From IMG/VR virus record IMGVR_UViG_3300032305_001732, positions 1-64,000 of that record: a stretch of DNA of 64,000 nt; one strand, given 5' to 3'. The translations under genes and the position numbers were made by a program. Positions 9,113 to 9,235 of the stretch are shown here, one piece after another. The DNA comes from a virus (taxonomy: Duplodnaviria > Caudoviricetes). The notes beneath the pieces are model-generated. The model was not told the origin of the DNA, did not search any database, and saw only the letters and a list, made by a program, of their open reading frames with translations. Position 1 is the first letter of the stretch, and the number at the start of each line of letters is the position of its first letter.

Positions 9113-9235
9113 CATTACCCACAAGTGTGTATGCGGGCTAACGAGTCGGGTCGCTCCCGGCGTGTGGCTTTTACCCACGAGAGTTAGCTGGCCAGTAGGC
9201 CAACGCAGAGGCGGGCGCAATACCCGCGGTAATGT
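9113..9235 (+). ncRNA. Enlarged tRNA mimic with Lys(TTT)-type anticodon loop
   Basis: Perfect 7-bp CATTACC/GGTAATG stem stacked on GCGGG-CGCAATA-CCCGC T-like arm; interior multibranch GCTAAC/GTTAGC carrying TGTGG-CTTTTAC-CCACG hairpin. Confidence 0.6.

Follow-up and report, generated by a model that had tools for sequence, protein, structure and literature searches.

Behind a gene for an 83-residue protein in this phage DNA, positions 9113-9235 can be drawn as an RNA with the ends of a tRNA and a body of another kind: a 7-bp acceptor-like stem stacked directly on a 5-bp hairpin with a 7-nt loop, and a branched domain that carries a CUUUUAC loop resembling the anticodon loop of tRNA-Lys(UUU). 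A preliminary description took this for a tRNA mimic akin to another element at 1468, and proposed that such RNAs serve as decoys for tRNA-Lys nucleases or as ligands for synthetases, RNase P or T-box-like sensors. The locus therefore raises the questions of whether such an RNA is real, where it begins and ends, whether it belongs to any known class of tRNA-like RNA, and what it might do.

Genomic setting

The window, that is the whole stretch of 64,000 nucleotides analysed here, comprises the first 64 kb of a 76.6-kb IMG/VR record with an estimated completeness of ~37%. All of its long open reading frames lie on the + strand. Multisubunit RNA-polymerase-like proteins are encoded in it, and the relatives retrieved with one of these are jumbo phages of ~200 kb. 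The first 13 kb form an accessory region that contains tRNA genes and, in several copies each, a promoter-like motif and a terminator-plus-GCTATCAG box. The closest IMG/VR relative is IMGVR_UViG_3300042556_001828 (G001; its locus coordinates are given as L012). Relatives of the element itself include those on the contigs L059, L063 (a JGI lake metagenome contig) and L064, which together with the window represent three distinct sequence variants, the elements of the window and L063 being identical. The element and the 83-aa gene lie in the accessory region, which is variable, and belong to a narrow lineage of jumbo phages of freshwater type that encode a multisubunit RNA polymerase of their own. 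The parts of the locus are as follows.

8292..8322, + strand: promoter-like bipartite motif GCTAAATA...GGCATATTA, one of five copies in the accessory region, with the same motif at the same place in L063
8830..9081, + strand: gene for the 83-aa protein, always immediately upstream of the RNA
9085..9111, + strand: 5' extension with a 7-bp hairpin, GCCCAGC-CGCCA-GCTGGGC, at 9093-9111, of which only the loop varies
9112..9119, + strand: closing (acceptor-like) stem, 5' strand, forming seven Watson-Crick pairs and the pair G9112-U9235
9120..9129, + strand: mini-hairpin CAC-AAGT-GTG in the D-arm position, invariant in all variants and predicted by both MFE folding and RNAalifold
9132..9207, + strand: multibranch body comprising P2, P3 and hairpins A, B and C (RNAalifold consensus)
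9132-9135/9204-9207, + strand: P2, TGCG/CGCA
9137-9142/9183-9188, + strand: P3, GCTAAC/GTTAGC
9145-9161, + strand: hairpin A, additional to the stems of the preliminary description
9163-9179, + strand: hairpin B, TGTGG-CTTTTAC-CCACG, with an invariant loop CTTTTAC at 9168-9174
9189-9202, + strand: hairpin C, TGGCC-AGTA-GGCCA
9211..9227, + strand: T-arm-like hairpin GCGGG-CGCAATA-CCCGC with an invariant stem, abutting the 3' strand of the closing stem with no spacer
9228..9235, + strand: closing stem, 3' strand, where conservation stops
9266..9301, + strand: intrinsic terminator hairpin and U-tract, then the repeated GCTATCAG box (terminator scan, repeat family D2, fold in context)

The stems within 9113-9235 were read directly from the sequence, as was a possible alternative pairing of TGGCG (9085-9089) with CGCCA (9100-9104) within the 5' extension.

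No further copy of the bipartite motif lies between 8292..8322 and the element. As the nearest one upstream, this copy is the likely transcript start for the 83-aa gene and the RNA, provided that the motif acts as a promoter. Transcription of the unit probably stops at the terminator at 9266..9301; in L059 the same GCTATCAG box accompanies another terminator, and L064 has a U-rich tract directly 3' of the element.

The same transcription unit takes in a second non-coding block at 8301-8600, within the gap at 8193-8830, which is 96-100% identical in L059 and L063, a higher conservation than that of the 83-aa gene, and is absent from L064. No gene is called in this block on the relatives' contigs, it has no Rfam match, and its TTG and GTG frames look unconvincing.

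In the 83-aa gene it is mainly the third codon position that differs (4/6/27 and 8/12/28), from which we conclude that it is truly coding. The protein matches no Pfam or PHROG family, and a profile search against 1.8 billion representatives found no remote relatives. Its AF2 model (pLDDT 76) has four strands and one helix; Foldseek found no match for this model and the ESM Atlas was uninformative.

Fold of the element

Minimum free energy (MFE) folding of the single sequence gives the closing stem, the mini-hairpin, P2, P3, hairpins A and C and the T-like arm, with the UUU hairpin formed only partly; in the window ensemble the pairs of this hairpin reach probabilities of only ~0.2-0.36. The window element folded alone has a z-score of -1.77, with 7 of 200 shuffles folding as well, and in context a z-score of -3.5, with none of 200 shuffles as good. 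The arrangement of a 7-bp stem abutting a hairpin of 5 bp and 7 nt has ~55 chance occurrences in the 76.6-kb record. Given the weak z-score and the frequency of this geometry, the window by itself does not carry the case beyond chance, and it is the comparison with relatives that makes the element real.

RNAalifold, applied to a MAFFT alignment that was not fitted to any structure, recovers all the listed stems, with 49 pairs, all of them kept, and adds the 5' hairpin and an eighth closing pair, a G-U. The consensus fold consists of this 5' hairpin and a four-way junction formed by the closing stem, the mini-hairpin, the branched body and the hairpin stacked on the closing stem. Every stem that had been proposed within 9113-9235 is present where the preliminary description placed it, CATTACC (9113-9119) and GGTAATG (9228-9234) pairing perfectly, and the rival pairing at 9225-9245 that it had raised is not favoured when the window is folded in context.

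The MFE structure of L059 and L064 is a different fold, ~7 kcal/mol better, that contains neither the T-like arm nor the UUU hairpin, and here the structure first proposed does not carry over to the single sequences. Because the window/L063 variant is unable to adopt the alternative fold, the consensus fold common to all variants would be the preferred one; co-transcriptional folding would also be expected to favour it. GCGGG occurs twice (9133-9137 and 9211-9215), as does CCCGC (9223-9227 and 9240-9244), and competing pairings are possible around the T-like arm; a rearranged fold that uses this competition is the thermodynamic optimum in L059 and L064.

Conservation in related contigs

The 83-aa gene ending at 9081 has relatives in five protein clusters, with identities of 65-90%, and DNA was obtained for four of these. 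An uncalled gap of 200-280 nt follows the gene on every contig that is long enough, and a covariance model built from the window finds matches at the same offset on four relatives' contigs, with scores of 118-156 bits. The contigs derive from at least three other metagenome samples, and the element always lies directly after the same 83-aa gene.

In L063 the element is identical at 123 of 123 positions, though the accompanying 83-aa protein is only 81% identical. Against L063, the RNA block has 151/152 identical bases and the gene 204/252 (p=7e-10); against L064 the corresponding values are 142/158 and 189/254 (p=1e-4). The RNA is thus more conserved than the coding gene adjacent to it. The conserved block, ~9085-9236, is larger than the 9113-9235 originally delimited: it starts at ~9085, just after the stop codon, and L059 and L064 diverge right after the GT at 9234-9235.

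The substitutions that do occur respect the structure. Two compensatory pairs are found in the closing stem, where UU/AA becomes CC/GG in L059 and UC/GA in L064, and no relative has a pair-breaking substitution. The only other stem changes, in P3 and hairpin A, are C-G to U-G and G-C to G-U, and the remaining changes, with three small indels, are confined to loops and junctions. All 123 of 123 pair cells stay paired, as against 34-43% in slid controls. A column-shuffle control is not significant, since 58 of 500 shuffles reach the observed covariation score; the covariation is thin because only three distinct sequence variants are available. All variants agree in the T-like stem, the mini-hairpin, P2 and hairpins B and C, an invariance that proves nothing about these parts, and for the T-like stem in particular there is no covariation for or against. 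The T-like loop keeps its length of 7 nt, reading CGCAAUA in the window and L063 and GGCGGUA in L059 and L064; a shared CGCAA T-loop is therefore not a trait of the family. No conserved kissing interactions between loops were seen on inspection by eye.

A coding explanation for this conservation was rejected. The 49-aa frame that spans the element (9090-9239) is broken in the relatives, its ATG being lost and indels of 3+1 nt disrupting it in L059 and L064. The gene downstream of the RNA differs between the three variants and is unrelated in each, while the upstream gene is constant, which argues that the RNA belongs with the upstream gene and is not a leader.

We conclude that the RNA is genuine, strongly conserved and structured, and that it is kept by selection. 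The matches in relatives, the paired cells and the consensus fold bear out the earlier proposal of a structured RNA with a tRNA-like closing stem and an adjacent hairpin, and homologues retain its stems together with the CUUUUAC loop, as judged from the relatives' contigs and RNAalifold.

Distribution

Covariance-model searches (models R1 and R2) found the element absent from G001 and from another 50 whole records of related phages, with a completeness of at least 90% in 12, which gives 51 related jumbo-phage records in total; the same models gave no match in 47 loci reached via neighbouring genes. A blastn search of 8800-9400 against 50,697 phage records and searches with exact and degenerate patterns in IMG/VR and GTDB genomes were likewise negative, and a pattern scan of JGI metagenomes returned only the contig of L063 itself. 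No such RNA precedes the relatives of the downstream 73-aa gene, and IMG/VR yielded no relatives of either the upstream 83-aa gene or the 280-aa gene. The 83-aa protein is as narrowly restricted as the RNA, which points to a single lineage-specific cassette of gene and RNA. Rfam gave no match on the element, either at the gathering threshold over the whole window or at E<=10 over 8150-9700, and ARAGORN in its tRNA, intron, tmRNA and mitochondrial modes produced only spurious calls at a 70% threshold.

Comparison with known RNAs

Canonical tRNA (RF00005), with its intron-containing and long-variable-arm forms, resembles the element in its four-way junction, in a terminal stem of 7 bp on which a 5-bp stem with a 7-nt loop is directly stacked, and in a 'variable' linker of 3 nt. 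The coaxial arrangement of the 7-bp stem with the 5-bp stem and 7-nt loop is kept in all variants, and, as in those of the phage's own tRNA genes whose 3' ends were read, no CCA is encoded at the 3' end. The tRNA T-loop consensus (U54-U55-C56-R57-A58) and the D-loop G18-G19 are missing, however, the corresponding loops being CGCAAUA or GGCGGUA and AAGU; nucleotides 8-9 are absent, and in place of a full D arm there is a 3-bp stem with a loop of 4 nt. Whereas the anticodon arm of tRNA joins the core directly, P2 (4 bp) and P3 (6 bp) separate the CUUUUAC hairpin, which is part of a three-way junction, from the core; its anticodon-like loop, with two extra hairpins as neighbours, is thereby displaced by ~10 bp and is too distant for decoding. 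RF00005 has no match at E<=10 on 8700-9700, and ARAGORN calls no tRNA at the element by default or even in relaxed and intron modes, which does not support the tRNA scaffold envisaged in the preliminary description.

The resemblance that had been noted to the gene at 1468 exists in the window, where that gene has the T-loop CGCAACT and a loop CTTTTAA, but does not extend to the other variants, two of the three having GGCGGUA in place of CGCAA. There is no evidence that this gene and the element form an RNA family: in the record the covariance model matches nothing other than the element, and the L063 contig combines an identical element with a canonical tRNA-Lys whose T-loop is TTCGAGC.

Several tRNA-related genes in these phages are unusual in their own right. 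The tRNA-Lys(UUU)-like gene at 1468-1540, which scores below threshold with the Rfam tRNA model, has an acceptor stem GGGGGCG/CGCCTCT with G3-U70 and A73, and a T arm CCGG-CGCAACT-CCGG. It nearly matches the tmRNA of G001 (acceptor GGGGGCG/CGCCTCC, A73; T arm CCGG-TGCAAAT-CCGG); in the tRNA-Lys genes that occupy this position in G001 and on the L063 contig the acceptor stems are ordinary. The G001 tmRNA (L012:3293-3637; 87 bits; tag GTFNSVPALAA) lies inside a tRNA cluster, a few kb away from the region homologous to that of the element; the window has no tmRNA. Both the tRNA-Lys (L012:603-678) and the tmRNA (L012:3293-3634) of G001 have G at T-loop position 55 (TGCAAGT and TGCAAAT) in place of the usual TTC. 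A 101-nt tRNA at 3979-4079, scoring 55 bits with Rfam and not called by ARAGORN, has canonical acceptor, D and T arms, an anticodon loop TTTATAT and a 31-nt insertion of two hairpins before the T arm.

The tRNA-like domain of tmRNA resembles the element in combining an acceptor stem and T arm with a long helix in place of the anticodon arm. The element nevertheless lacks the G3-U70 pair of tmRNA, position 3:70 being U-A or C-G, has no tag frame, and measures 123 nt as against >300 nt. ARAGORN -m and the Rfam tmRNA models are negative on it, and no SmpB was found in the record. Comparison with YrlA, the bacterial and phage Y RNAs that mimic tRNA and are bound by Ro60/Rsr, shows a different topology: the ends of YrlA are located in the Ro-binding helix and its 'acceptor' is an internal stem-loop, whereas the ends of the element themselves form the acceptor-like stem. 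YrlA also keeps tRNA-like D- and T-loop nucleotides and is encoded within 4 kb of a TROVE gene; the element has loops unlike those of tRNA, the 76.6-kb record (~37% of the genome) contains no TROVE gene, and Rfam gives no Y-RNA-type match. Membership of the tRNA, tmRNA and YrlA classes was rejected, as in each case some of the defining features looked for are lacking. The YrlA of M. smegmatis is cleaved by RNase P and receives CCA, and a 7-bp acceptor stem is a major determinant for RNase P (PMC4201824).

The closest parallel in design is with bacteriophage T4. T4 RNA C (species 1 RNA, rnaC) and RNA D are, like the element, small phage RNAs of ~120-140 nt, and both RNA C and the element lie in an accessory region with phage tRNA genes. 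When folded, rnaC shows an acceptor-like terminal stem stacked on a hairpin of 5 bp with a 7-nt loop, the two enclosing a non-tRNA body of ~100 nt made up of long hairpins; its function is unknown (PMC3014915, PMC9697503). This architecture of terminal stem and T-type hairpin is found in the element also, as a similarity of design only. On the T4 tRNA region the element model R1 reaches at best 12.7 bits (E=0.07), and there is no homology to rnaC or rnaD. The two RNAs also differ in detail: the T-loop of rnaC is the canonical UUCGAAU and its acceptor stem contains mismatches, in contrast to the perfect stem and non-T-loop sequence of the element. Unlike rnaC, the element combines a branched body, in which one loop is anticodon-like, with a 5' hairpin that is conserved, and the gene in front of it codes for a protein and not for a tRNA.

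Possible function

The explanation that we favour, with a little better than even confidence, is that the locus is a lineage-specific non-coding RNA gene of ~125-150 nt, forming a cassette with the 83-aa gene, whose product has tRNA-like ends and is processed out of the transcript. The element is of the T4 RNA C kind, by analogy of design only, with tRNA-like acceptor and T ends on a non-tRNA body, and is absent from Rfam. The RNA is most likely co-transcribed with the 83-aa gene; its transcription would start from the motif at 8292 and be stopped by the terminator at 9266-9301. Its 7-bp closing stem, set on a hairpin of 5 bp with a 7-nt loop, would imitate the acceptor/T minihelix of tRNA, so that the host enzymes acting on tRNA ends (RNase P at the 5' side, 3' trimming and CCA addition) could excise and stabilise it; T4 RNA C and mycobacterial YrlA may be seen as precedents for such a build or such treatment. 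A simple tRNA-like excision fits poorly in one respect, since an RNase P cut at 9112/9113 would remove the conserved 5' hairpin. The invariant body, with four loops including CUUUUAC, would be the working part, binding a protein or RNA partner, which may be the co-inherited 83-aa protein.

The RNA might instead act in cis, as a 3'-UTR element of the 83-aa mRNA that blocks exonucleases, marks a processing site or is bound by the 83-aa protein for autoregulation of its mRNA, with no product acting in trans. This would agree with a block that begins right after the stop codon and has a terminator or U-tract behind it in all variants, with its strict linkage to the 83-aa gene while the downstream gene varies, and with the restriction of protein and RNA to the same narrow lineage. 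We regard it as possible though unlikely, because five invariant hairpins and near-perfect conservation of the loops, above that of the coding region, would be needless in a simple stabiliser, and in the window a strong terminator hairpin already stands 30 nt downstream.

More doubtful is a role as a tRNA-Lys(UUU) decoy, titrating anticodon nucleases (PrrC, RloC, PARIS AriB) or further proteins that bind tRNA-Lys. Besides its tRNA-like ends, the RNA displays, invariant in all variants, a 5-bp stem with the loop CUUUUAC (U33-like, UUU, A37-like), and phage tRNAs are known to counter tRNA-cleaving defences (bioRxiv 10.1101/2023.03.15.532788; PMC13096335). The CUUUUAC loop is, however, no more invariant than the other loops, and a rough estimate from loop composition suggests that an anticodon-like 7-nt loop is fairly frequent by chance. 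Position 38 is C, where the tRNA-Lys genes of these phages have A, and the weakly paired UUU hairpin sits on a helix of ~10 extra bp in a molecule that is not tRNA-shaped as a whole. A linked nuclease or repair gene is lacking, and the tie to the 1468 element is not conserved. The decoy, synthetase-ligand and T-box-like roles of the preliminary description are purely inferential. An extended version, in which the 83-aa protein and the RNA together form a hitherto undescribed ribonucleoprotein or counter-defence cassette of the phage, the tRNA-like ends recruiting host tRNA-processing enzymes and the Lys hairpin trapping or inhibiting a host enzyme directed at tRNA-Lys, for instance an anticodon nuclease or a modification enzyme, we consider just as doubtful.

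The capacity for alternative folding could suggest a riboswitch-like leader or attenuator for the next gene, switching between the consensus and alternative folds: the two GCGGG segments compete for one CCCGC, L059 and L064 strongly prefer the alternative, three of the four contig groups have a terminator behind the element, and an alternative 5' hairpin is possible at 9085-9104. This is very unlikely, given that the gene to be controlled is unrelated in each variant, that the spacer and terminator are not conserved and have no complementarity to the element, that the window/L063 variant has no access to the alternative fold, and that no Rfam riboswitch match was found.

The least probable reading, that the locus is non-functional (a tRNA or tmRNA pseudogene in decay, a fold due to chance or the small protein-coding frame at 9090-9239), could appeal to a single-sequence fold that barely beats shuffles, to the frequency of the acceptor-plus-hairpin geometry by chance and to a related phage with a tmRNA in the same accessory region, but is largely refuted by the conservation above the adjacent gene, the structure-preserving changes, the broken frame in relatives and the lack of similarity to tRNA or tmRNA models.

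Significance

The non-coding RNA that we favour, in a cassette with the 83-aa gene, has a narrow distribution, being represented by three variants and absent from 51 related records, which limits both its generality and what can be learned by comparison. Small phage RNAs whose ends resemble those of tRNA go back to T4 RNA C and D, and research on tRNA-directed defence and counter-defence is now active. Since its partner, a protein gene, is fixed and its boundary is defined, the element is potentially a tractable entry point.
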